64,000 bases of DNA from IMG/VR virus record IMGVR_UViG_3300036820_000006, positions 35,276 to 99,275 of that record; one strand, given 5' to 3'. Of this stretch, positions 7,495 through 49,230 are shown in pieces (positions within the stretch are counted from its first letter, which is position 1; every line of letters starts with the position of its first letter). The notes below the pieces were generated by a model. It ran no database searches, was not told where the DNA came from, and worked only from the letters and a program-made list of their open reading frames with translations. The position numbers and the translations under genes are program-made. Origin of the DNA: a virus.

Positions 7495-8304
7495 ATGGCA
7501 TTGAAGCGACTTTACACTGCTCTACGCGATTCACTTGATCCGCGTGATAGAGTGCTGCCTCAACCCGCATCTCTTATGTCACCTTTGCCTACTGTGCCTA
7601 ATGTGAGCTTAGCGCAATGGCTGGGGACTGTGAAGGACCAAGGAGCTACCGGGAGCTGCACGGCGCAAGCAGGCACGGGCATTTTAGAATGGCATTACAA
7701 CCGCTTTAAATCTCAATCTCTGGCATTCTCACCACAATTCCTGTATCGTGCCGAGCGGATTGTTGAGGGCGATGTCACGATGGATGGCGGCGCACAGTCT
7801 CGCACTATGATGAAAGTGCTGTGCCAGTATGGGACCTGTTTAGAAAGTAGCGATCCTTACAATGGGAATACCGGTTGGCAGCAGCCTACTACTCTAGCGC
7901 AACTAGCAGAAGCGCGTGGCTATCGCATGGGCGCTTATCATCGCGTCAGTGATCTTGAAACATTGAAAGGCGTGCTCAGGTCCGGTTATGTGTCCTCACT
8001 CGCTATTGAGGTTTACGAAAGCTTTGAGACGCAGCTGGTAGCGGAAACCGGTACTGTGCCAGTACCCGCTAAAAGTGAGCAGTTCCTTGGCGGCCATGAG
8101 GTTTATTGCTATGGCTATGACGATGTGCGCAGCGTGCTGCTATGCCGAAATTCGTGGGGACTGGACTGGGGCGCGGCTGGAGACTTCACTCTTCCGTATG
8201 GCTATTGGTCAGCGGGCTATGTGATGGATTCGTGGTGCTGTCATTTTGGGTCTCCTTGGAAGCTAGCGCCGTCGCTAGCGAACCTACCCAACCAGCACCC
8301 ATAG
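7495..8304 (+). CDS. Papain-like cysteine peptidase (family C1)
   Basis: VKDQGATGSC, GGHEV and RNSWG catalytic Gln/Cys/His/Asn motifs. Confidence 0.92.
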   Translation: MALKRLYTALRDSLDPRDRVLPQPASLMSPLPTVPNVSLAQWLGTVKDQGATGSCTAQAGTGILEWHYNRFKSQSLAFSPQFLYRAERIVEGDVTMDGGAQSRTMMKVLCQYGTCLESSDPYNGNTGWQQPTTLAQLAEARGYRMGAYHRVSDLETLKGVLRSGYVSSLAIEVYESFETQLVAETGTVPVPAKSEQFLGGHEVYCYGYDDVRSVLLCRNSWGLDWGAAGDFTLPYGYWSAGYVMDSWCCHFGSPWKLAPSLANLPNQHP

Positions 8305-12102: not shown

Positions 12103-12415
12103 GGCTTTCTCCTTTCGGTGCGCTGAGGGCGTCGTAGCGGCGGATTATGGGGGCAGCCTTACTTTGCGCTTCCCTAAACTCGCCCATCGTAATTACATCT
12201 TGATATCCCCTCAGCGCTTCTACGGCTTCGCGGAGGAGGTCAGGCTTGACCACATCAGAGGCGGCTTCTCAAGCGTCTAACAATGGAATCATTACGAGTT
12301 GCGGATGAACGCAGATCGTGCGGTTCTCACTAGAAGCAGATGTCACTCCCTTGCGCAATGCTGTTATCAGCTCCGGTGACAACTCGGGCCGCTGGTCCTG
12401 CTTTCCATCACTCAT
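12095..12415 (-). pseudogene. Hypothetical ORF interrupted by an in-frame TGA
   Basis: MSDGKQDQRP...LLDA*EAASDVV...KGESHE. TGA at 12269-12271. Both ends overlap neighbouring ORF ends. Confidence 0.45.
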
Positions 12416-12418
12416 GGC

Positions 12419-12778
12419 TCACCTTCTTTCCCGATGAGACTTTCTGGCGTTCAAGTGTTGCGCGCAGAAATCGCGACGGGATGCGAAGATGAACGAATCC
12501 GTCCTTGAAAGAGTTGTGACCCACCTCGGTCGGCAGTCCATGCGTGCGCACAACACCTTCATGCCGAGCCTGCCCGCTGCCAGCGTGAGCGCGTTCTTGA
12601 TGCTCATGGGCGGAATGAAAACTTCCTTGGTCTGAGGATCATAATGCAAATGCTCACGCCATGTGCGCTTGCGATAAGCATCGTAAGATTCTTGGTCTTC
12701 CTTTTCGGTTTCGTGGTAACGAGACTGCGAATAAGGTGATACTCCTTCAAGCTCGACGGTTGCGATGCGAACGGACAT
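12419..12778 (-). pseudogene. RAMP/Cas7-like protein, 3'-truncated after about residue 75 (candidate guide-RNA-binding effector)
   Basis: VELEGVSPYSQS first strand and VFIPPMSIKNAL..AA resemble the RAMP P.IP.SS.KG.LR signature. There is no C-terminal Gly-rich loop. After GMKV the sequence looks like the 3' end of another gene in a different frame. Confidence 0.55.
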
Positions 12779-12815
12779 TGAAATTCTCCCTTGGATTTGA
12801 GTTTGAGTTATGAAA

Positions 12816-12995
12816 ACGTTACGTTACATTACATCAAGCAGCGCGAAGTTGAGACACGATGCAGCACGCAGCAGAACGTTACAGGACGCAACGTAGCGCT
12901 GCACTGTGATGCCCCATGACGCGTTGCGAAACGACGCCCAACAGCACAGAATGCTGCGACATGCGGCGTTACGTAGCGACACGGAACGTTACGCA
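12816..12995 (-). ncRNA. Pentamer array A: 36 x (NN-CGY), putative gapped guide RNA
   Basis: On +, 36 in-phase units. Triplets: RCG 19, RCA 8, RTG 4, RAG 3, RCC 2. The last two bases vary. Confidence 0.85.
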
Positions 12996-13009
12996 ATCTC
13001 TAGCAAGCT

Positions 13010-13516
13010 TTACTCTTGAATGGCCTTGGACCCGAAAAGTTTCAGTGTCTCATCCATCGGCAGTGGACGAGTACGATTGCCAACCGCATCAGCGATCACC
13101 TTCTGCGTGCGCTCAGTAGCGCCCTTCTGGATGAACTGCAGAATCGTCAGCGAGGTATTGTGTTGCAGCTTTGACTGTGCGCTGAGCGAGTCGTAATCGA
13201 CTGCCTGCAACCGGCGCGATGCACGCTTGGCTGCCTTGCTGAGCTTGCGCAAGTCCGCAGTGCTTAGACTGGGAACTTCTTCATTGGGCACTAGCCGTAC
13301 GCCTCGGCCCCAGTCCACCACAAACACCATGCCTTGTTCACTGAGCAGCTTATTAGTTGATGTGGTAAGGACGTTGCGTCGATGCCGCACATCACACCCA
13401 CACAGGGCGTTCAGCTCGGTATACGTTACGGTCTCTCCCGGTTTGGCCTCGGCAAGCCGACGCAGAGCGATAGTAGTCTCAACCGCGAGATTACCCTTGA
13501 TTGGAATATACGGCAT
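13010..13516 (-). CDS. Accessory protein with a winged-helix-like N-terminus, flanked by arrays A and B
   Basis: 168 aa with GGGAG SD. PGETVTYTELNALCG...VFVVDWGRGVRL gives a wHTH-like pattern. Confidence 0.65.
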   Translation of the reverse strand: MPYIPIKGNLAVETTIALRRLAEAKPGETVTYTELNALCGCDVRHRRNVLTTSTNKLLSEQGMVFVVDWGRGVRLVPNEEVPSLSTADLRKLSKAAKRASRRLQAVDYDSLSAQSKLQHNTSLTILQFIQKGATERTQKVIADAVGNRTRPLPMDETLKLFGSKAIQE

Positions 13517-13546
13517 TCAGAATCTCCCTTTCTGATGATGCCAGTA

Positions 13547-13646
13547 ACAGTTCGGTACGGTACGTCACGTGACATGAAGGTGCGTTACGGGACATCACCT
13601 CACGGGACGGGACGATGCGGCGCGTAACAAAAAGATATGCAACATT
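13547..13646 (-). ncRNA. Pentamer array B: 20 x (NN-CGY)
   Basis: acagt tcggt acggt acgtc acgtg acatg aaggt gcgtt... All triplets are within one mismatch of RCG. Confidence 0.8.
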
Positions 13647-13659
13647 CACGCCATCTACC

Positions 13660-13689
13660 GTTATACACATATAGCCACGAATCTGTCAA
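13660..13689 (-). promoter_or_regulatory. Sigma70-type promoter for the array B / accessory gene / array A / RAMP-like operon
   Basis: TTGACA-18 bp-TATAAC with an extended -10 TG, on the minus strand. Confidence 0.75.
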
Positions 13690-13716
13690 CATATATGTGT
13701 GTACCAAATCGATGCT

Positions 13717-16700
13717 CTAAAATTTGACCTCCTGCAGCTCCGCCATGTTCGGCCCGCAGGCACATTCAATGCCCACTACCAGACCCTCTGGAGCGAGCTG
13801 TGGATGCACCAGCACATTACTCGGCCTACCGAACACGTCGCTGATATCATGCAACATCTGCGCACGCAAGCCTACTGGATAACAGAGCAGAATGCTGTCG
13901 TGAATCGTGTTGCACAGGCCGTAGCGCTCAGCCAACCCTTCACGATCTAGCGCTTTCAACCGCTCACGCAGGTCGCCGTGCGCCTCGCTCTGCACTCTGA
14001 ATGCCATGGCGGCGTTGAACTGCTCGCCAGGTTTCCAGCTGCCTTTACCATCGGGCACGTAGACCTCGTAAAACCATCGCAACATTCCGTAGCGGTTCTT
14101 TAGCATGCCCTGCCGGTGCGCCTCTTCGCACACGTTGCGCTGCCATACGAACACCTTTGGGAACAGACGCTCAATAACAGTGCGGAACTCTCTAGCCTGC
14201 TTCAATGAGGCGAAATGTTCACGGTTCATTTCGTAAAGATGTGGCGGCATCAACCCCAACGCAATGCCAAGAATACTCGGCTTGGCCTGCCGGTCACGCA
14301 CGGCTTTATAACGCTCATTGGACCTGAACCAGCGAAAGCGATCCATCAGCTCGTCGTCAGGTAGCGCGAACAGCTTATCCGCATCCGGCAGGCGCAGAAA
14401 GTTCCACGCCACAAAGCTGTGCATGTCCAGCCGTGCCATACGGCAGTTATGTGACAAGAATCCCTCCGCGATAAATGTTTTAGTACTCGTACCTAGTGCC
14501 ACGACAGGATGATTTCCTATAGACTCAATTTTCAAAATCTTGGCGTCATGCGCAAGTTTTCCAAACACGTTCATGCCTTCTAGCCTAGACAAGCACTTAG
14601 GTAATAATCGCTTTGGTCTAAATTGCCCCAGCGCACGTATACCCGCGAATGGCTGCCCCACAAACCTAAATGTACGGCAATCTCGTTGGGGATTGTTAGC
14701 ACTGTCCCCAAGGCTATAACCATATTTAGCTAACATACTTGCTACCGAGTCCGCGATAATCCCAGGTCTCTGTGCGAAACTTAGCTGGCACCCATTACTA
14801 AGGGACCCCTCCCCATCCAAAATTCCGGCAATATATCCTTGATCCCATAGATCAGCACTCTTCCATGGCGGGGTAAACGTGCTCAAGTACATACCCGTAG
14901 CTAATTCATCAGCCCTGCGCCAGCTTACTCGTTGCTTAGTATCAAACTTAGCTAGCCATGTGTGTTCTATGCTGCATGTAACAACGCCTTGGTCAGTGGT
15001 AATGCGCACACACGGACGTTCAATATAATCCACGGACTCAATTACGGATTTACGTAGCTTGCGTTTGCCCTCTATCGGAAACTCATCGAATCCCCAAAGT
15101 ACCTCTCCCTCTCGCAGGTCTATGGCACGTCTCCATTGCAGGTCGGCCGTCAGAATACGAGTATCTGGGGCCACACAATAAGACTCATCTTCAGCTAAGA
15201 ACCCTGTAATAAGGACATGATAACTTTTCAAATCCCAGTTCGCCAGCTCATACCCCGCTGGCGCTTCGATCATACTTTTTATAGCCTTACCCAACTTACC
15301 GTGGGCAGGGTAAGTTTGCGTAGATGGATTGCGCGCACTTAGCTGTCCAGTCGCGGGCGCGAAGGTAAAAGTGGTGTGTACTCGGCCGTCGGCGTGCGGT
15401 TTGAACCCGTCAACATAAGTGCTCGACATCTTTCCCATCTCACGGCATTCAATCACCTTCGTATAAAAGTCATCCTTGTGCCTAACTGCGAGACGTTCTA
15501 GCTCTTTTTTGTTGGTGGTGTCACTGCCTTTCTTGCGATCTTTGGGAATCTTATGCCCACGCACCCGCATATAATTCATCAGTTGCGGCGATGAGTTTGG
15601 TGAGAATTCATACACACGGCACCAGCGTGCAACCCCGGCAGTCTGTGTGCCAAGCTGCTCATCAAATACCTGCTGGCCAAACTGGCGCACATCAAAATAG
15701 AAGCGCTCACCCGGTTCCTCGACGCCATCTTCATCCGTGGTCGGCGGGTCCTCGAACATGCGCGCGCGGATCACCGCTATCTCGTCGGCAGTTACATTGC
15801 TATAACGATTAAGGTAAGCATTCTTGGCGGACTCGGTTAGCGCTTTCTTTGTCTGCTTGCCTTCCACCACCGGAATCCGAGTCGGCGTGATCTCTTCTAG
15901 CAGCTCTTTGACGCGAGGGGGCACTCCGGCATAACCATCCTTCGGCGTGATCTTTCTGGCGTCGGCGGGGAACCTGGCATCCAGCTCTAGCAGCAGCTCC
16001 GCACGCGTAGCATCAAACTGCGCGCCTAGCGCCAGCCTACGCTCATTATTAATCGGCAGGCCCCGCTGCTCCATTTTGGCTAGAATTGGCCGCACTGCTT
16101 CGACTTGGTTCTCATAGCCGACAGCGGCGCGCGCAGGCTGCGGGTCATACCATATCCCGCGATCTACCATAGTGCGGTACGAGACTGAATGAATACGCTG
16201 TGTCGCGTCCACGTCTACGCAGCCGTAGAACTCCAGATTGGTGCCGTTCAAATGCTTCCAGGGGAACGGGAACTGCGCATAGCTAGCAGCGAACTGCAGA
16301 TGCGCGGGCAAATCCGGCTGCATAAAGTGGAACTGTTGTAAGGTATCGTGTACCGGCCCGGCAAGTTCGAGATAGGTGGCATTGCCGAAATCGCGCTGGC
16401 CGACCGCGCGCAGAACTTTCAAATCGAATAAATTGTAATTATGCCCCAGCTTCGGCAGCGGCAGTTTCAGCAGCCATCTTGTCGCTTGAATAAAAGGCTG
16501 CTTCCACGGCATCGCAATAGCTTGGCCTGGCGCGACGCTGAACTGACTTAGCCTAATCTGCGTATCGGTGAATCCATCCGTTGCGTCTTCATCTAGCGAT
16601 GCCGATTCAAAAGTTTCGATATCGTGTGCCAGCGCGGTTAGTACGTGCTCAGCGGTACCGGGAATGCTGGCCAGCCACGCATCTGAACGCGCTTTTACAT

Positions 16701-17418
16701 CGCGGCAGAAATCGTCCAACTGAATAAGTGTTGGATGCAAGGTGTAATTTAGGTGGTTCTGTTGCAGCCACGCTGCTACTGCTTCAGCATCGTTATCCTG
16801 CAGCATGTCCAGAATAAAACTTTTATCTTTACCGTAACGCACGTTGACCGCGCGTTGAATATCTCGCGCCAGCACGCCGGTGAGATGAATCGCGCCTCGG
16901 CGCAGGAAACTAGGATGATATGTAGGCACCACCAGAAGTTCGCAGCCTGCTGCTTCGCAGAACTCTGGCAGCGCGCGAAACACATAACCGCGCATATGGC
17001 TAATAGTGCGCTTTTCGCCCGAGATGCCCGTCAAAGTGCGGAACGGAATGCCGCCAAGCGCCACTACAGTGCGCGGCTTGAACTTGCGAAAGAATTCCAA
17101 TAGATTAGGCTGGCACTGATTGATGACGGAGAACTCATAGTTAGTTCCAGCTAGCGCGTTCCCAAATGGTCTGCAGCGCAACGTATTCGAGATTGCGAAC
17201 TGGTCGCGGGAGAATCCCAGCCGACGCAGCGTGCGCTCTAAGACAGCTCCAGCTGGTGCGTATTTGACAAAAGGAGTTAGTTCACGCGCCTCGTTTTCTC
17301 CGCTGGCCTCGCCAATGAGAGCAACGCCTAAGCTGCAGCTTCCTTCTGGCTGGGAGAAGTCAGTGCCAGCATTGTATAGATAGCAATTTCTACAGCTATC
17401 TGGCTTACTCCTGACCAC
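13717..17418 (-). CDS. polA: Family A DNA polymerase with N-terminal uracil-DNA glycosylase-like domain, 3'-5' exonuclease and intein
   Basis: UDG motifs IGEASG, NTLRCRP, PTYHPS. Exonuclease motifs HDIET, GHNYNLFD, YGCVD. Polymerase motifs TGQLSARNP, motif A WDLKS, motif B RQAK and motif C IHDS. Confidence 0.92.
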   Translation of the reverse strand: MVRSKPDSCRNCYLYNAGTDFSQPEGSCSLGVALIGEASGENEARELTPFVKYAPAGAVLERTLRRLGFSRDQFAISNTLRCRPFGNALAGTNYEFSVINQCQPNLLEFFRKFKPRTVVALGGIPFRTLTGISGEKRTISHMRGYVFRALPEFCEAAGCELLVVPTYHPSFLRRGAIHLTGVLARDIQRAVNVRYGKDKSFILDMLQDNDAEAVAAWLQQNHLNYTLHPTLIQLDDFCRDVKARSDAWLASIPGTAEHVLTALAHDIETFESASLDEDATDGFTDTQIRLSQFSVAPGQAIAMPWKQPFIQATRWLLKLPLPKLGHNYNLFDLKVLRAVGQRDFGNATYLELAGPVHDTLQQFHFMQPDLPAHLQFAASYAQFPFPWKHLNGTNLEFYGCVDVDATQRIHSVSYRTMVDRGIWYDPQPARAAVGYENQVEAVRPILAKMEQRGLPINNERRLALGAQFDATRAELLLELDARFPADARKITPKDGYAGVPPRVKELLEEITPTRIPVVEGKQTKKALTESAKNAYLNRYSNVTADEIAVIRARMFEDPPTTDEDGVEEPGERFYFDVRQFGQQVFDEQLGTQTAGVARWCRVYEFSPNSSPQLMNYMRVRGHKIPKDRKKGSDTTNKKELERLAVRHKDDFYTKVIECREMGKMSSTYVDGFKPHADGRVHTTFTFAPATGQLSARNPSTQTYPAHGKLGKAIKSMIEAPAGYELANWDLKSYHVLITGFLAEDESYCVAPDTRILTADLQWRRAIDLREGEVLWGFDEFPIEGKRKLRKSVIESVDYIERPCVRITTDQGVVTCSIEHTWLAKFDTKQRVSWRRADELATGMYLSTFTPPWKSADLWDQGYIAGILDGEGSLSNGCQLSFAQRPGIIADSVASMLAKYGYSLGDSANNPQRDCRTFRFVGQPFAGIRALGQFRPKRLLPKCLSRLEGMNVFGKLAHDAKILKIESIGNHPVVALGTSTKTFIAEGFLSHNCRMARLDMHSFVAWNFLRLPDADKLFALPDDELMDRFRWFRSNERYKAVRDRQAKPSILGIALGLMPPHLYEMNREHFASLKQAREFRTVIERLFPKVFVWQRNVCEEAHRQGMLKNRYGMLRWFYEVYVPDGKGSWKPGEQFNAAMAFRVQSEAHGDLRERLKALDREGLAERYGLCNTIHDSILLCYPVGLRAQMLHDISDVFGRPSNVLVHPQLAPEGLVVGIECACGPNMAELQEVKF
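14446..15177 (-). mobile_element. Intein (244 aa) with a LAGLIDADG motif inside the polymerase
   Basis: Starts CVAPDTRILT, contains YIAGILDGEG and ends FIAEGFLSHN before an extein Cys. The segment has lower GC. Confidence 0.92.
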
Positions 17419-19564: not shown

Positions 19565-19637
19565 TGCGAACCGAGGGGATCGAACCCTCGACATCACGAT
19601 TACAATTCGTGCGCTCTATCCACTGAGCTAGGTTCAA
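19565..19637 (-). tRNA. tRNA-Thr(UGU), slightly atypical
   Basis: D arm GCTCAGTGGATAGAGC, anticodon stem CACGA/TCGTG with loop ATTGTAA, T arm GAGGG-TTCGATC-CCCTC. 1:72 mismatch and no encoded CCA. Confidence 0.75.
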
Positions 19638-19684
19638 GTTCGCGGTTGTCAGTGCTCCACAGCACCGAACATAGTTGGCTCTGT

Positions 19685-19810
19685 CTAATCACGCTGCTCT
19701 ACCACTGAGCTACTCCCCCTCAGGGCAGCGAACGTATCTTTGAGTGAGGTCAGAGATCGCATTCGCTGCTTGGAGGGGAAGAAGGGATTCGAACCCCCGA
19801 CCACGCTTTT
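19685..19810 (-). ncRNA. Permuted tRNA-like element (3' half, hairpin, then 5' half)
   Basis: GGTCGGGGGTTCGAATCCCTT-CTTCCCC-TCCA lies upstream of GGGGGAG-TAGCTCAGTGGTAGAGC. The acceptor strands pair 7/7 with one G-U. Confidence 0.6.
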
Positions 19811-20039
19811 TGGGCCTTCTACTCTGTGCTGCTTCTGCTGCCGCATCAGTCTCTTGGGTGATAGCCTTAGTCTGCGCTCGCGGTACATGGCCGAGAGACT
19901 TCCTTTAGCTTGATCCCTGAGTCTGAGCCTTGAGTTACCCCTCGCGGGGTCACCCAAACTTGGGAAATGCTGGCGGGACAGATTTACGACCTTGCCTCTT
20001 ACCTCTCGGAACGGTCATGCGAGCGGCCAGCATCGAATT

Positions 20040-20115
20040 TGGTTGCGGGGGCTGGACTTGAACCAGCGACCTTGTGGTTATGAGCCACCTGTTCTACCAA
20101 CTGAACTACCCCGCC
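20040..20115 (-). tRNA. tRNA with CAU anticodon (Met type)
   Basis: Full 76-nt cloverleaf, loop CTCATAA, encoded CCA, 1:72 mismatch. Confidence 0.9.
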
Positions 20116-21726: not shown

Positions 21727-21801
21727 CCGTTACGCTACGAAACTATGCGGGACTGTAAGATATGGGACAATGCGCCACGTCGAGTTACGCGGCGGCACGA
21801 T
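21727..21801 (-). ncRNA. Pentamer array C: 15 x (NN-CGY)
   Basis: ccgtt acgct acgaa actat gcggg actgt aagat atggg acaat gcgcc acgtc gagtt acgcg gcggc acgat. Begins 2 bp after the upstream stop codon. Confidence 0.8.
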
Positions 21802-32001: not shown

Positions 32002-35000
32002 TCAGTTCGCCTGCGCTCGTTCCTCTCCCTCCCTCTTATCCATATCAGCAATCTCCTTAGCAGTCGCAGGCCGCGCCTGCACAAACGGTAGATGCATAAA
32101 TTTCTCCATGAATTCCTCTTGTGTGCCTTCATTCAGCACTTCAGTAAGAGGGCCATCCGCGCCCACGCCGAGCAAGCTATTGGCTACTCTACGTATCAAT
32201 GCAATCACATGCTCGCGCGTGCTGTGGACGGTCATGGTGTACCAGTTCTTTTCGTCTTTAGAATCGAAGAATTTGTCATCCTTGTGGTAACGGAAGCGAT
32301 AGTCGAGTTGGTAGAGCCTGCCGGGTTCAAGCTCAGTAGCGGCGGCCAGCCAGTCTTGTTTGGGTTGGATTGGCATGAACCAGATGCCGATTGTTTGCTC
32401 GGTCATGGTTATCATTGCTGTGGCTCCTTTGTGGAAACTGGAAGTTGGCTATGCAGTAGCAACACAGCCCTCATAATGCGTTGTAGCGTGCGACGCAGGT
32501 CGTCTGGCAAGGTGGCTAAGTCCACAGGCGCGAGTTTATGCTTCTTGTCGAATTGCAGAGGAGTCGCGCATTCAATGCCAAACGGTACAGTCGCCCGGCT
32601 TGGGACCGGAGGTAGATTCTAGTGGGTCCGCATTAGAGGCCGCGTCGAGCTTATGCCCACAGTTCGGGCAGAGTTGCAGCTTGAGTTTATGAGTTGACAT
32701 CTGGTTCTCCCCTTCACGTTATCCCTCATGTGGAATAGTTATATTCGTGGCTGCTACTGCCATGCCCGCCGCCGCCGTGCTCGGCGCTATTCAACAGCGC
32801 CGCAATACCAAACAGCAGCGCCAGCACCAAGCCAAGCGCCAGCAATGGCTTGCATATTCCCCATAGCCACAGCGGCAGGCTAGATTCTTCGCGCAGGAAT
32901 TGCTTCAGCGCCTGCTCGCGATTGATCTGGTCATGGTGGGTCATGCGGAAGCCTCCTTGCGCGGCTTGTAGCCCGCCATCTCATACGCACGCTGCTTTGT
33001 CCAGCAGTACGAATTGCTTCGGGCGCTCGTCTTCAGGATCAGTGAACACGGCGAACTCGTCCGCGTCGTAAGCGAGCGCGGCAGCTTCGAACGCGCCGTT
33101 ATCGACAATGCAGATAAGCGCTTTGTCGGCGGGGATATCGTTGAAAGATTCTGGCTGCGCGATTAGCTTGCCGTTGTGCCGCGTTGCGATAATGCGCGCT
33201 TTATCGTGGTCGCTGCCGGGGGTTTGAATGTAGTATCCCACAAGGGTTTATCTCCTTTTTTGGATTGCGATGCGATGCGATGCGTTACGCGGCGCTGCGA
33301 TGCGATGCGATGCGCTATGACAAGAAGCGACACAGTATGAAACGGTACTAAGCGCTACGTAGCCGCACGCTAAGGTTATGAAGAAGTTGAAGTTTTGGCT
33401 TTCTGAACTTTTTGAGCGAGCTTGCTGGCATCGAACCCTAGCTCGAATGGCTGCTCGCGGGTGATTTTTTCCACGCGTATGAATTCGACTTGTTTCATCG
33501 CTACGATGCCGTAGTCACGTAAACGCTCCAGTATTTCGCGCTTAGTGGGAAGCTTGGCAAAGCGCCACGTCGCGGGATACCACCACGTAATTACGGATAC
33601 ATAATGCCCACTACGGCACTGGTTGTAACCCGCTTGAAAGCGTAGCTCATAAGTGACTTGGCAGCATTCGCGCGAGCCTGCAGTGGTGTTGGTAGATGGC
33701 ATAGTGCCGTGCGCCTCCTTAGTTCCGCCTTAGTTCATCTTGCTCAAATCGGTTTCCTTGCCTACTGGAATCAGTGTTGCGCGGCCATGCTTGGAATCGA
33801 CTGAAATTGGCCCGCGCTGGCCGGTTGCGGCGGCTTTGATGGCGGCGGTAATGCTCGCGCCGATCTCGTCAGCATGTTCGGCCAAGTCGCGCATGTTCGC
33901 GCCGCCGAAGCTAATGCTGCCTTGGCCCAAGCTATCAATGACGGTGAAGTCGGCGTCTATGGCAGCCGTAGCCGTAGCATCAGCGGCATCAGCGGCAGCA
34001 GAGTCAGTAGCACTAGCACCGCCCTCAGCGACCGCCCGCATCAGCTTATCAAGCGAGCGCTCCACTGAGCGTTCCACCCCCGCACCTCCACGAATTTGAT
34101 TGCCAGCCGCTGCCGCAGTCCACAGCGCATTCGCGCCGCCGCCGATGAATGTGTTGCGCAGCAAGGAAATCATAATGAGCATGTGCTCATCCGGGTCCGG
34201 CGTACTGCCAGCAGCTATAAGTGCGGCATCCGCAGCGCTCTGTGCGTTGATGGCTTTGTCCAGCTCGAATAGCATCTGCTTGATAAAAGCATCCATGCCG
34301 CGCTTAGCCAGCTCAGCAATGCGTTTGATTTCCGCGCCTGTGGCTTCATCGCTGACTTCTTCGTCTTTCTTGGGAATGTACATGATGAATGTGTACCCCT
34401 TCTGTATGAGTGCAAGTGCGAGTGAGTGACCGGTGGAGTGACCGGTGGAGTAGTGACTAAGCTAAAATTTATCTTGCTTGGTGAAGCCCGGCGAGATGCG
34501 CGGCTTTTCAACTTTGGTAGCTTGGAGCGCCGCGTAGTGTGCAATAGTGTCTACGCAGATGGCGATGATAAGGTCGCCGTCTGTGTCATAGAACTCCAGA
34601 AAACGGAACTTTTGCTGAGGCTGACCTGAGCAGCCTTGAACAACCGTGGTCGATCCGTCCGTGTGCGCGACGGTAAATGCGAATGTCAGTTGCGTGTAGG
34701 TGTAGGTGGTGTTCATTGCGTTGCGCCCTCCCTTGGCGCATGACCTTTTTTGTTGGCTAGGCGATCTCAAACCGTCCGATAAACTTCTCGCATTCTGCGC
34801 ACGAGATGTATAAAGCGCCTTTATAGAAGGCAGTCTGCGTTGCCGCCTCAGGATGACAGCGCGCGGTAAGGTAACATAGGCCCACTGTCGTGCTTGTGAT
34901 CGCAGTTAGGTGCGGCACAACCCATCCCGGCTAGGGTGTGCGCGCTGGTAGCATGTTTATCTCTGGCCCATGCAGTGTAGTCGATCATTTTTTGGCCTTT

Positions 35001-36571
35001 CCTCTTTGGCGCGCTATAGATGCGTGAGCGGGCAGAAAAGATTCATCAGCTAGCTAGGTTCGCTCGGCTGAGGTTCGTTGCCCGTCATGCTTGATGAAAT
35101 ATTCCCAGCGGTCACGGCAGGCACGAGCCATGCCTTTGTGGTCGCCTTTGCTCTGCGCTTTGTAATAACGCTGGCTGAATGGCTCCGGCCATCTCCCGGC
35201 GTTGCTGAATAAAGTTCCCAATGCTACCCGATAGGACTGCTCAGGCAACCGCAGTGCTTCAATGGCTTTCCTCACCCAGTTCGTGCACGGGTTGCACGCC
35301 ATGCGTCGGTACTCTTTGCGTGTAACCTGATCCCAAACTGCCCAGCCTGCTGCGCAGCAGGTCATGCCGCAGTCGTCTTTCTGGGGGAAATCGTTTTGGT
35401 CATAGAATTTCGGCTCCGCCATAATCGCAGCAGTCATGCGCCGGATGCGACGGATGCAAGTTGCGCTGAGATTGCGCTTGGCGCGAGTGCGCTCAGCTTT
35501 GGTTATCTGTGTTGTCATCTTCGTAATCCTCCCTCTTACTTGCCTCTTGCCTCGTACTGAGTATGCTCATCCGCCAGCGCGCCCGCATCGGGCACATGGG
35601 CTACAGCCATGTGCGCCACCTGCCAGCGCCTGCGCTGTGCAGTGTAGTAGCAAACGCTCGGTGCCTGCGCTCCGCAGAATGGGCAGCTGGTGCTGATCCC
35701 GTAACCTCTACCCGCGCGTCGTGCTGAAAAGATACTCAGCGCATTCGCGGGCAAACTGTTTTGCAGGAAGGTTAGCGACTTCTGCAATGTGGTAGAGTTC
35801 GTTTTCGAGCTTGCCGACAGTGTAGGCGACGAACGATGGCGGGATGGTTGAGGCATAAGAAGATGCTCCTTGGTGAGTGGGGTGGATAGTAGAGTTACTG
35901 GGGGCCGGTGCAGCCATGGCACGCTGGTGGCGCTGAGCCTGCTCAGCCGCTTTCTTGCCCCGCCATTGCGCTTTGTACTGAGCGGTGGAAGAATAGTATT
36001 GCTTTGGCTTCGCAGCGGGAGGCTTGGCAGCCTTGGCACTAGATGGCAACGGTGGCCATACTACAGCGCCGGGATAGAGCCTGCCCCGCTTAGCGAGCAA
36101 CTTAGCGGCTTTCTTTTGGGTGATGTAATACTGCCCCTCTGGAAGCGCCGGACGAACGCCATACGCACGTTTGCCGCTAGTAGGCACAGGAGTCGCTGCC
36201 GTCGTCGCTGCCGCCAGCTTCTTAGCTGCAAGCTTACGAGCGCGCTTCTGCTGTGCCTTCTGCGCAATGCGGCTACGCTCAGCCTTACTCAGCTCAGTGA
36301 TCCCTTGCGCGCGCCGCGCCTGCCCAACTAGGGACTTCTTGCCAGGAATGCCGTGCGCGAACCACTTGTGCTTGCCCAGCTGGGTAGGCGACACATGCGC
36401 GAAGGTGCAACCGGGATAATCGCAAGCGCCTGCGAGTGTAGGTGAGTAGGCCGAGGTAACGTCGGCTACGGCGTCAGCGTCGTCGTTGGCGGCGTCGGCT
36501 ACGGCCTCAGGAACGGCCACGACATCCTGTATCGCTGCCGTGCTCTCTGGATTGAATATGCTGTAATCCAT
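32002..36571 (-). other. Run of hypothetical early/middle genes (32002-32415, 32726-32944, 32981-33241, 33376-33702, 33730-34383, 35054-35518, 35708-36571)
   Basis: Co-oriented ORFs with SD motifs. 35708-36571 has a C2H2 zinc finger (CDYPGC...HKWFAH) and a Lys/Ala-rich region. Confidence 0.6.
33267..33376 (-). ncRNA. Pentamer array D: 22 x (NN-CGY)
   Basis: gcgat x3 gcgtt acgcg gcgct gcgat x3 gcgct atgac aagaa gcgac acagt atgaa acggt actaa gcgct acgta gccgc acgct aaggt. Fills the intergenic gap. Confidence 0.8.
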
Positions 36572-49110: not shown

Positions 49111-49230
49111 TTCGTCCCGCATCGTTACTTGTTGTTGCGTTCCGTACCGCTCCGTATCGTAACGTCATGTTCCGTTCCATACTGTTCCGTATCGTGTCTC
49201 ATCGCATCGCGCCGCGCCGCATTGTAAAGT
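49111..49230 (+). ncRNA. Pentamer array E: 24 x (NN-CGY), on the + strand
   Basis: ttcgt cccgc atcgt tactt gttgt tgcgt tccgt accgc... All triplets are within one mismatch of CGY. Orientation follows local + transcription. Confidence 0.85.

Follow-up and report, generated by a model that had tools for sequence, protein, structure and literature searches.

VIPR systems and their targets

VIPR systems, published in 2026, consist of a Cas7-like RAMP protein of ~20 kDa (Vipr), the accessory gene vap and vrRNAs (bioRxiv 10.64898/2026.04.26.720920). Each vrRNA comprises 9–16 YNNGG pentamers and an invariant, structured 3′ tail, and its NN dinucleotides read double-stranded DNA with a one-base skip that mostly falls on wobble positions, which leads to transcriptional silencing (bioRxiv 10.64898/2026.04.26.720920). 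The same study reports the variant repeats NNNGG, YNNNG and NNNNG and the targeting of active sites, shows that guides concentrate on lysis–lysogeny regulators of prophages and describes inter-phage warfare by VIPR in the Pseudomonas fulva clade (bioRxiv 10.64898/2026.04.26.720920). In cryo-EM structures, one Vipr protomer covers each repeat, with the thumb and G-loop holding the triplet while the NN dinucleotide is presented (bioRxiv 10.64898/2026.04.26.720927). [quoted passage not shown] The targets discussed in these three preprints are rival phages, satellites and vipr (bioRxiv 10.64898/2026.04.26.720920, 10.64898/2026.04.26.720927 and 10.64898/2026.10.15.759431); their main texts mention neither ImmA, CapP and CBASS nor anti-defence targets.

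ImmA, IrrE and CapP form one peptidase family with a common motif (bioRxiv 10.1101/2022.04.27.489752). CapP, when activated by DNA damage, cleaves the repressor CapH and thereby raises the expression of an immune operon on the opposite strand; the repertoire of such operons includes CBASS, 6e multi-ubiquitin and E1–JAB systems (bioRxiv 10.1101/2022.04.27.489752). Protection by the published CapH/CapP system did not need induction (bioRxiv 10.1101/2022.04.27.489752).

Here we analyse an uncultured soil phage with a YNNNG-type (CGY) VIPR locus. Its gapped-code mechanism is not new, having been in print from April 2026, and as the principle is already published the gain is incremental: a computational, independent confirmation of the VIPR gapped code on a CGY scaffold. 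What is new is the reading of the target as capP instead of a prophage immA, a replicate guide directed at rmrA, the truncation of vipr and a pair of columns in the Vipr alignment by which CGY and GGY loci can be told apart.

Five pentamer arrays in a soil phage genome

The window, that is, the whole stretch of DNA analysed, is 64,000 nucleotides long (positions 35,276 to 99,275 of virus record IMGVR_UViG_3300036820_000006) and belongs to a complete 99-kb soil phage genome in which we found no integrase. No relative emerged when viral contigs were searched with vap or the helicase as single proteins. The features of the window that are discussed below are:

12419–12778, minus strand: truncated vipr, an ORF just downstream of array A; the homologous part is 12554–12778 (~74 codons)
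12811–12835, minus strand: 3′ end of vrRNA A2, the low-information units GATGT AATGT AACGT AACGT, then TTTCA
12816–12995, minus strand: array A, 36 NN-CGY units
12836–12905, minus strand: guide part of vrRNA A2, 14 pentamers (RNA units 19–32 of array A)
12906–12920, minus strand: degenerate spacer units GTCAT GGGGC ATCAC, three units between two guides
12921–12995, minus strand: guide tract A1, 15 units, the upstream part of array A
13010–13516, minus strand: vap-type accessory gene (168 amino acids), between arrays A and B
13547–13631, minus strand: array B, 17 NN-CGY units, upstream of vap
13660–13689, minus strand: promoter-like sequence match TTGACA-N18-TATAAC, upstream of array B and at the head of the unit
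21732–21801, minus strand: orphan array C, 14 NN-CGY units
33267–33371, minus strand: orphan array D, 21 NN-CGY units
49111–49230, plus strand: orphan array E, 24 NN-CGY units, within the arm transcribed rightward

All 112 units of the five arrays are CGY or one mismatch away from it, and the phase is unbroken within every array. The triplet positions carry ~1 bit each and the NN positions ~0–0.15 bit; the first base of the triplet is C in 86 of the 112 units, giving a YNNNG form and not the GGY consensus of YNNGG. In every array, NN-CGY is read on the same strand as the genes on either side (minus for A to D, plus for E). Rfam had no match on the arrays. It did identify two ordinary tRNA genes on the minus strand, at 19565–19637 and 20043–20115, which flank a segment (19675–19817) named a permuted tRNA-like Y RNA in the initial annotation.

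The order on the minus strand is promoter-like site, array B, vap, array A and vipr remnant, so that arrays stand beside vipr on the same strand together with a vap accessory gene. The 168-amino-acid gene is the vap of this Vipr clade: in 23 of 55 viral loci, a homologue of it adjoins vipr and shares its strand. Its structural model is confident and combines a winged-helix-like N-terminal part, with weak wHTH matches, and a helical domain; the model had no significant match in the PDB. The promoter-like site has a perfect −35 element, an 18-nt spacer and TATAAC. A consensus promoter scanner reported nothing in 12300–13800, having passed over this site because its −10 hexamer ends in C.

In a 1,233-amino-acid ORF at 13717–17418 (minus strand), a UDG-superfamily domain and a family A DNA polymerase are joined in one protein. 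Its residues 747–997 match nothing but an internal part of mycobacteriophage terminase genes, at 36% identity, and this suggests that they form an intein or a homing-endonuclease insert.

Guide A2 and its gapped matches in natural DNA

On the plus strand, 12836–12905 is made of 14 in-phase pentamers in which letters 1–3 are conserved and letters 4–5 are free; in the RNA sense, on the minus strand, each reads NN-CGY. Its free dinucleotides on the plus strand are CA CG TT AC AT GC CA GA TT GG CA TA CT CT, identical on rereading to those that the initial annotation had listed for units 5–18 of array A. Taken as codon positions 1 and 2, they permit the peptide Q/H-R-F/L-T-I/M-A-H/Q-D/E-F/L-G-H/Q-Y-L-L, from which the annotation had picked Q-R-F-T-I-A-H-E-L-G-H-Y-L-L, together with a reading as a wobble-ignoring guide against a protease gene.

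We searched natural DNA with a pattern in which two bases are specified and one is free, 28 specified bases in total. Exact matches numbered four in ~185,000 one-genome-per-species reference genomes, where ~2e-5 would be expected (596 Gb, both strands), and 15 in metagenome contigs; the viral contig collection contained none. The reading frame is kept in all 19 exact matches, each of which encodes RQRFTIAHE[L/F]GHYLL, as the codon reading had foretold, so the NN code of A2 matches natural DNA with a one-base skip at wobble positions. These matches represent 18 distinct DNA sequences on contigs of 36–67% G+C, in which none of the skipped positions is constant. With up to three mismatches allowed, an even draw of 400 Pseudomonadota genomes yielded 15 further sites in 13 genomes, against 0 for a control with reversed order. 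The pattern has no match in the window (≤3 mismatches) or in the genome core (≤2 mismatches), and hence no self-target there. The 19 matched genes come from reference genomes and metagenome contigs, and none is known from a host of this phage.

The genome search that had been proposed along with the annotation, run for A2 at a gap of one base, therefore found in-frame matches, and the dinucleotides of A2 are complementary, by sequence match, to codon positions 1 and 2 of QRFTIAHE[L/F]GHYLL in capP-type M78 genes. The postulated wobble-ignoring pairing equals the published VIPR rule, with which the exact in-frame matches agree. Likewise, the variety of the matched sequences suggests that synonymous changes would not allow escape and that a gene family would be within reach, as had been claimed. 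The idea of a minus-strand RNA acting against a gene holds as far as the gapped match to that gene is concerned; its target would have to be restated, as the published one is double-stranded DNA, leading to transcriptional silencing, and not mRNA.

The same matches delimit the guide. In every exact match, identity is confined to the 14 units on both sides, and we define the A2 guide tract by the points at which all 19 targets cease matching. On the 3′ side of the RNA, 12811–12835 lies outside the match in every target examined. Its four units are tail-like and therefore never match targets; they resemble the conserved AACGC/AACGT units and T-run that close many arrays of CGY-type relatives. 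On the other side, 12906–12920 is the probable boundary between vrRNAs A1 and A2, because the target match stops there. Guide A1 had no match above shuffle level in its own genome, in capP loci or in the VIPR loci of relatives, and the same was true of guides B, C, D and E against the phage genome, capP loci and the VIPR loci of 55 relatives; no guide window of the phage exceeds shuffle level against its own genome.

A run from a second soil study (X2) contains a variant of array A at a depth of ~3×, which we compared over 12693–12969. It has two 10-nt (two-unit) indel clusters and four triplet substitutions, as well as two NN changes, TT to GC in unit 1 (tail) and GG to TG in unit 14 (guide), all read from a low-depth contig. 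The variant suggests that vrRNAs may turn over unit by unit.

Comparison with the reference VIPR systems

The closest described systems are the VIPR systems, which fall into seven types; the reference, type II, is known from Escherichia phage SUSP1 and from a prophage of Pseudomonas fulva. Shared with them are a phage-borne family of lone ~190-amino-acid Cas7-like RAMP proteins, an accessory gene predicted to bind DNA, and same-strand pentamers in which three bases are conserved and two are free. The guide, at 14 units, is within the published range, and its match to coding DNA follows the same scheme: two bases read and one skipped, skips on wobble positions and a target at the active site of an enzyme. 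Several differences stand against these likenesses. Apart from one 27% match, no phage in GenBank showed similarity at the BLAST level. The triplet is CGY and not GGY, corresponding to the published ‘YNNNG’ alternative; the 3′ end consists of a few AAYGT units and a T-run, in place of a tail shown to be a pseudoknot; vipr is truncated; and the predicted target is a regulator of host immunity.

A profile-guided scan found 55 viral loci that encode the Vipr family. About 40 of these have same-strand NN-GGY or NN-CGY arrays, mostly beside vipr, and the triplet in these relatives is either GGY or CGY. The AlphaFold model of the family (pLDDT 94.8) finds its best structural matches in Csm3, Cmr4 and the Cas7 subunits of types VII, IV and I (Foldseek E value of 1e-8), and compares with Cas7-like structures at a VIA Z of 12.4 and an r.m.s.d. 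of 3.5 over 154 residues. Class 1 CRISPR filaments of Cas7 (Cascade, Csm/Cmr, type VII) thus resemble the system in the RAMP fold of the partner family, and also in having a protein filament along the guide RNA with periodic base displacement. They differ from the locus described here, which has no CRISPR repeats, cas genes or adaptation module, and in which guide information resides in dinucleotides, whereas class 1 CRISPR uses 5-nt segments of a contiguous spacer.

A truncated vipr

The Vipr family consists of stand-alone RAMP proteins of ~20 kDa, encoded outside CRISPR loci, with an RRM core, a thumb and a glycine-rich loop, a description that the copy in the window does not fit. Homologues are 187–195 amino acids in length (the closest full-length ones being P0004, P0006 and P0009), and the phage ORF aligns with them only over the first ~74 residues; its remaining 45 codons are unrelated to the Vipr/RAMP family, and it lacks both the thumb and the G-loop region. 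The junction is reproduced in a Logan contig of run X1, the probable source soil sample, so that two assemblies agree on it. A contig from the second soil study aligns over 12554–12607 and then encodes the next residues of the family, QGKGQKTYAQ. As the vipr of this close relative continues past the breakpoint, the genome studied here carries a deletion or replacement. The region downstream of the breakpoint has no similarity to the loci of relatives, and neither tblastn with six full-length homologues nor the family HMM run against every ORF found a second vipr copy in the 99,275-bp genome.

The truncation means that activity of the guide in this genome is not assured: with vipr cut after ~74 codons, the guide may be a recent relic or may depend on Vipr in trans. 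With this qualification, we assign a probability of roughly 80% to our main reading, that 12836–12905 is a vrRNA guide of 14 repeats that matches capP and is either such a relic or served by Vipr in trans. The truncated vipr is also a natural case in which to ask whether guides persist after the loss of their protein or make use of a borrowed one.

The first possibility is that the phage is vipr-null in the published sense, with solo vrRNAs that load onto the Vipr of a co-resident phage, prophage or satellite, either to use it for the phage's own ends or to draw it away to host sites as a decoy. We regard this as a tentative option. Five well-formed arrays, a promoter and vap persist here even though vipr is truncated, the vipr of a close relative from a different soil sample runs past the breakpoint, and there is precedent in the 346 vipr-null phages and decoying satellites of the 2026 preprint (bioRxiv 10.64898/2026.10.15.759431). 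Those phages, too, have kept vrRNA genes without a working vipr, and their guides are wobble-aligned on conserved codons. They differ, however, in having a clean 1,114-bp vipr–vap1 deletion and one or two guides, mostly directed against vipr, vrRNAs or satellites, whereas this phage has a 74-codon vipr stump, an intact vap and five arrays. The retention of vap and the fact that none of its guides matches the vipr loci of the 55 relatives above shuffle level, with no vipr-directed guide found, both speak against this possibility.

Of similar, limited probability is a recent inactivation, in which the guide formerly worked, has been functionless since the vipr deletion and is not yet degraded. 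Loss of the repeat-binding thumb and G-loop, the agreement of two assemblies of the same soil sample on the junction and the failure to find a second RAMP gene in the genome all fit such a relic. It is harder to reconcile with the state of the arrays, as all 112 units, dispersed over five arrays, keep phase and triplet, and natural targets that agree with the guide at 28 of 28 bases can still be found.

The matched genes encode CapP-type peptidases

Pfam Peptidase_M78 (PF06114) was found in all eight matched genes tested (six of guide A2 and two of a guide in a relative, described below). In PADLOC, capP was the best score for nine of nine exact matches (E values of 1e-30 to 3e-55) and for eight of ten near matches from the 400-genome sample (up to 3e-69), several of which span the full 242-position capP model; the remaining two near matches are RmrA and a gene without a strong PADLOC match. 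The M78 models of PADLOC are all linked to defence, so a best score for capP does not by itself separate these genes from immA.

An HTH gene lies directly upstream of the matched gene wherever the flank was examined, and two of these score as capH. In six of nine loci, the genes have the CapH/CapP arrangement opposite CBASS or ubiquitin-like operons. The neighbours on the opposite strand include CD-NTase, E2 and SAVED-Cap4 with BREX nearby, CD-NTase with TIR-STING, ThiF–JAB and, in two loci, multi-ubiquitin with an E1-like gene; the neighbours in three target loci are without recognizable genes. No integrase or phage structural gene occurs in the examined flanks (≤4 kb). The targets thus share with CapH/CapP, ImmR/ImmA and DdrO/IrrE pairs an M78 HEXXH peptidase and an HTH gene upstream of it. 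The difference is that such a pair is here the predicted target and not the system, the phage itself having no M78 gene.

These observations support the identification of the predicted targets as CapP-type regulators rather than ImmA of prophages or integrative elements. The initial annotation had named the ImmA/IrrE motif and offered both contexts; CapP was upheld by PADLOC and by the flanks, and the prophage or ICE context of ImmA was not recognizable within the ≤4 kb of flank examined. One might still propose that the true targets are genes for ImmA anti-repressor proteases in competing prophages or ICEs, as a form of inter-phage warfare that would lock a resident prophage in lysogeny. Published VIPR guides are indeed mostly directed at lysis–lysogeny regulators of prophages, the peptidases share one motif and one Pfam family in all eight tested cases, capH–capP defence operons can themselves reside on mobile elements, and three loci have uninformative flanks. 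We nonetheless consider this proposal unlikely, given the lack of integrase and phage structural genes within the examined ≤4 kb, the CapH/CapP-like layout of six of the nine flanked loci and the best score for capP in 17 of 19 tested exact and near matches.

The locus L081 (1414–7695) gives a view of one exact-match target within a defence island, with BrxA/BrxB, capH–capP, CD-NTase, E2 and a SAVED-Cap4 nuclease.

A replicate guide directed at rmrA

We scanned the 55 relatives for arrays that contain the dinucleotide series of A-H-E-x-x-H, and found one, in L034. This locus encodes a ~47%-identical Vipr and has an array of NN-xRC units. The guide comprises 17 units that decode to RFDLAHELGHLVLH, or in fuller form R[CW]RF[DE]LAHELGHLVLHG. 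With a gap of one base, a 14-unit pattern from this guide matched two viral contigs exactly and in frame, both times in rmrA. Gaps of 0 and 2 gave no match, and a gap of 3 matched only the array itself. Both targets are RmrA (E values of 1e-166 and 5e-136), and one adjoins RmrT, which makes it part of a RosmerTA system.

In L034 (7801–8060, plus strand), the rmrA-directed guide is followed by AGGAC AAGGT TTCAC, and the same motif, with TTTAC, occurs upstream at 7806–7820; it is therefore probably the vrRNA tail of that system.

A proposed model for silencing of capP

The most plausible course of events, on the published mechanism, would be as follows. The unit of promoter, array B, vap, array A and vipr remnant would be transcribed from the minus strand, and the RNA would be processed at the degenerate units 12906–12920 and after 12811. 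One Vipr protomer per pentamer would hide the triplet, here CGY where the reference has GGY, and present the two free bases, provided that a CGY-reading Vipr acts like a GGY-reading one. The guide would then pair with double-stranded DNA, two bases paired and one skipped, and block transcription. The 28 informative bases of A2 are complementary to the coding strand of capP-type genes over the codons of the HEXXH active site. Its skips lie on wobble positions, and A2 therefore fits many alleles across phyla. Given a working Vipr, A2 would silence capP, the amount of CapP would fall and immunity repressed by CapH would stay off.

Several points weigh against this account. The thumb and G-loop that are missing here hold the triplet in the published structure (bioRxiv 10.64898/2026.04.26.720927), silencing would leave in place any CapP that the cell has already made, the flanks of capP loci were matched by none of the other guides of the phage, and in the X2 relative the copy of the guide differs at one NN dinucleotide (GG to TG, on a contig of low depth).

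We propose, tentatively, that such guides serve counter-defence. Placed on the HEXXH codons of capP, or of rmrA in the relative, they would keep CapH-repressed operons from being raised: the host would not induce CBASS, ubiquitin-like 6e or E1–JAB systems upon DNA damage or infection, and capP alleles of different phyla would come within reach of a single wobble-blind guide. The purpose of guides on the ‘ImmA motif’ would thereby be sharpened, towards CapP-type regulators and, in a relative, the antitoxin gene of RosmerTA. If this is true, RNA-guided silencing by phages hits host immunity besides rival mobile elements, and one guide placed on an invariant catalytic motif reaches a whole gene family.

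In Bacillus trp leaders, TRAP binds (G/U)AG-NN RNA repeats that have a 5-nt period, a conserved triplet and a 2-nt spacer. That array A is a binding track for a ring- or filament-forming protein of this kind, with the protease motif a coincidence, would account for the 3 + 2 periodicity, but spacers in TRAP repeats carry no information and those of A2 match a gene family exactly, and with 19 exact in-frame matches, a reversed control of 0, a second guide (L034) on the same motif and a Cas7-like RAMP as the partner family we reject the idea for practical purposes as highly improbable.

Triplet identity and vrRNA form among relatives

Two columns of the Vipr alignment, 130 and 149 (residues 111 and 127 of P0006), split CGY from GGY loci without overlap in a comparison of 10 and 12 loci among L005–L058. 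At residue 111, CGY loci have L, C or A and GGY loci have V; at residue 127, the residues are Y and F, respectively. These two positions may set the specificity of the triplet pocket for the first base, or may merely mark the clade, as shared ancestry could also explain both columns.

L052 (6600–8290, plus strand) carries ~14 short vrRNAs in tandem, with 9–14 NN-CGY units each. Most of them are closed by a near-invariant AGAGC AGAGC ARGTA TTTT, a guide-plus-tail arrangement in the CGY clade.
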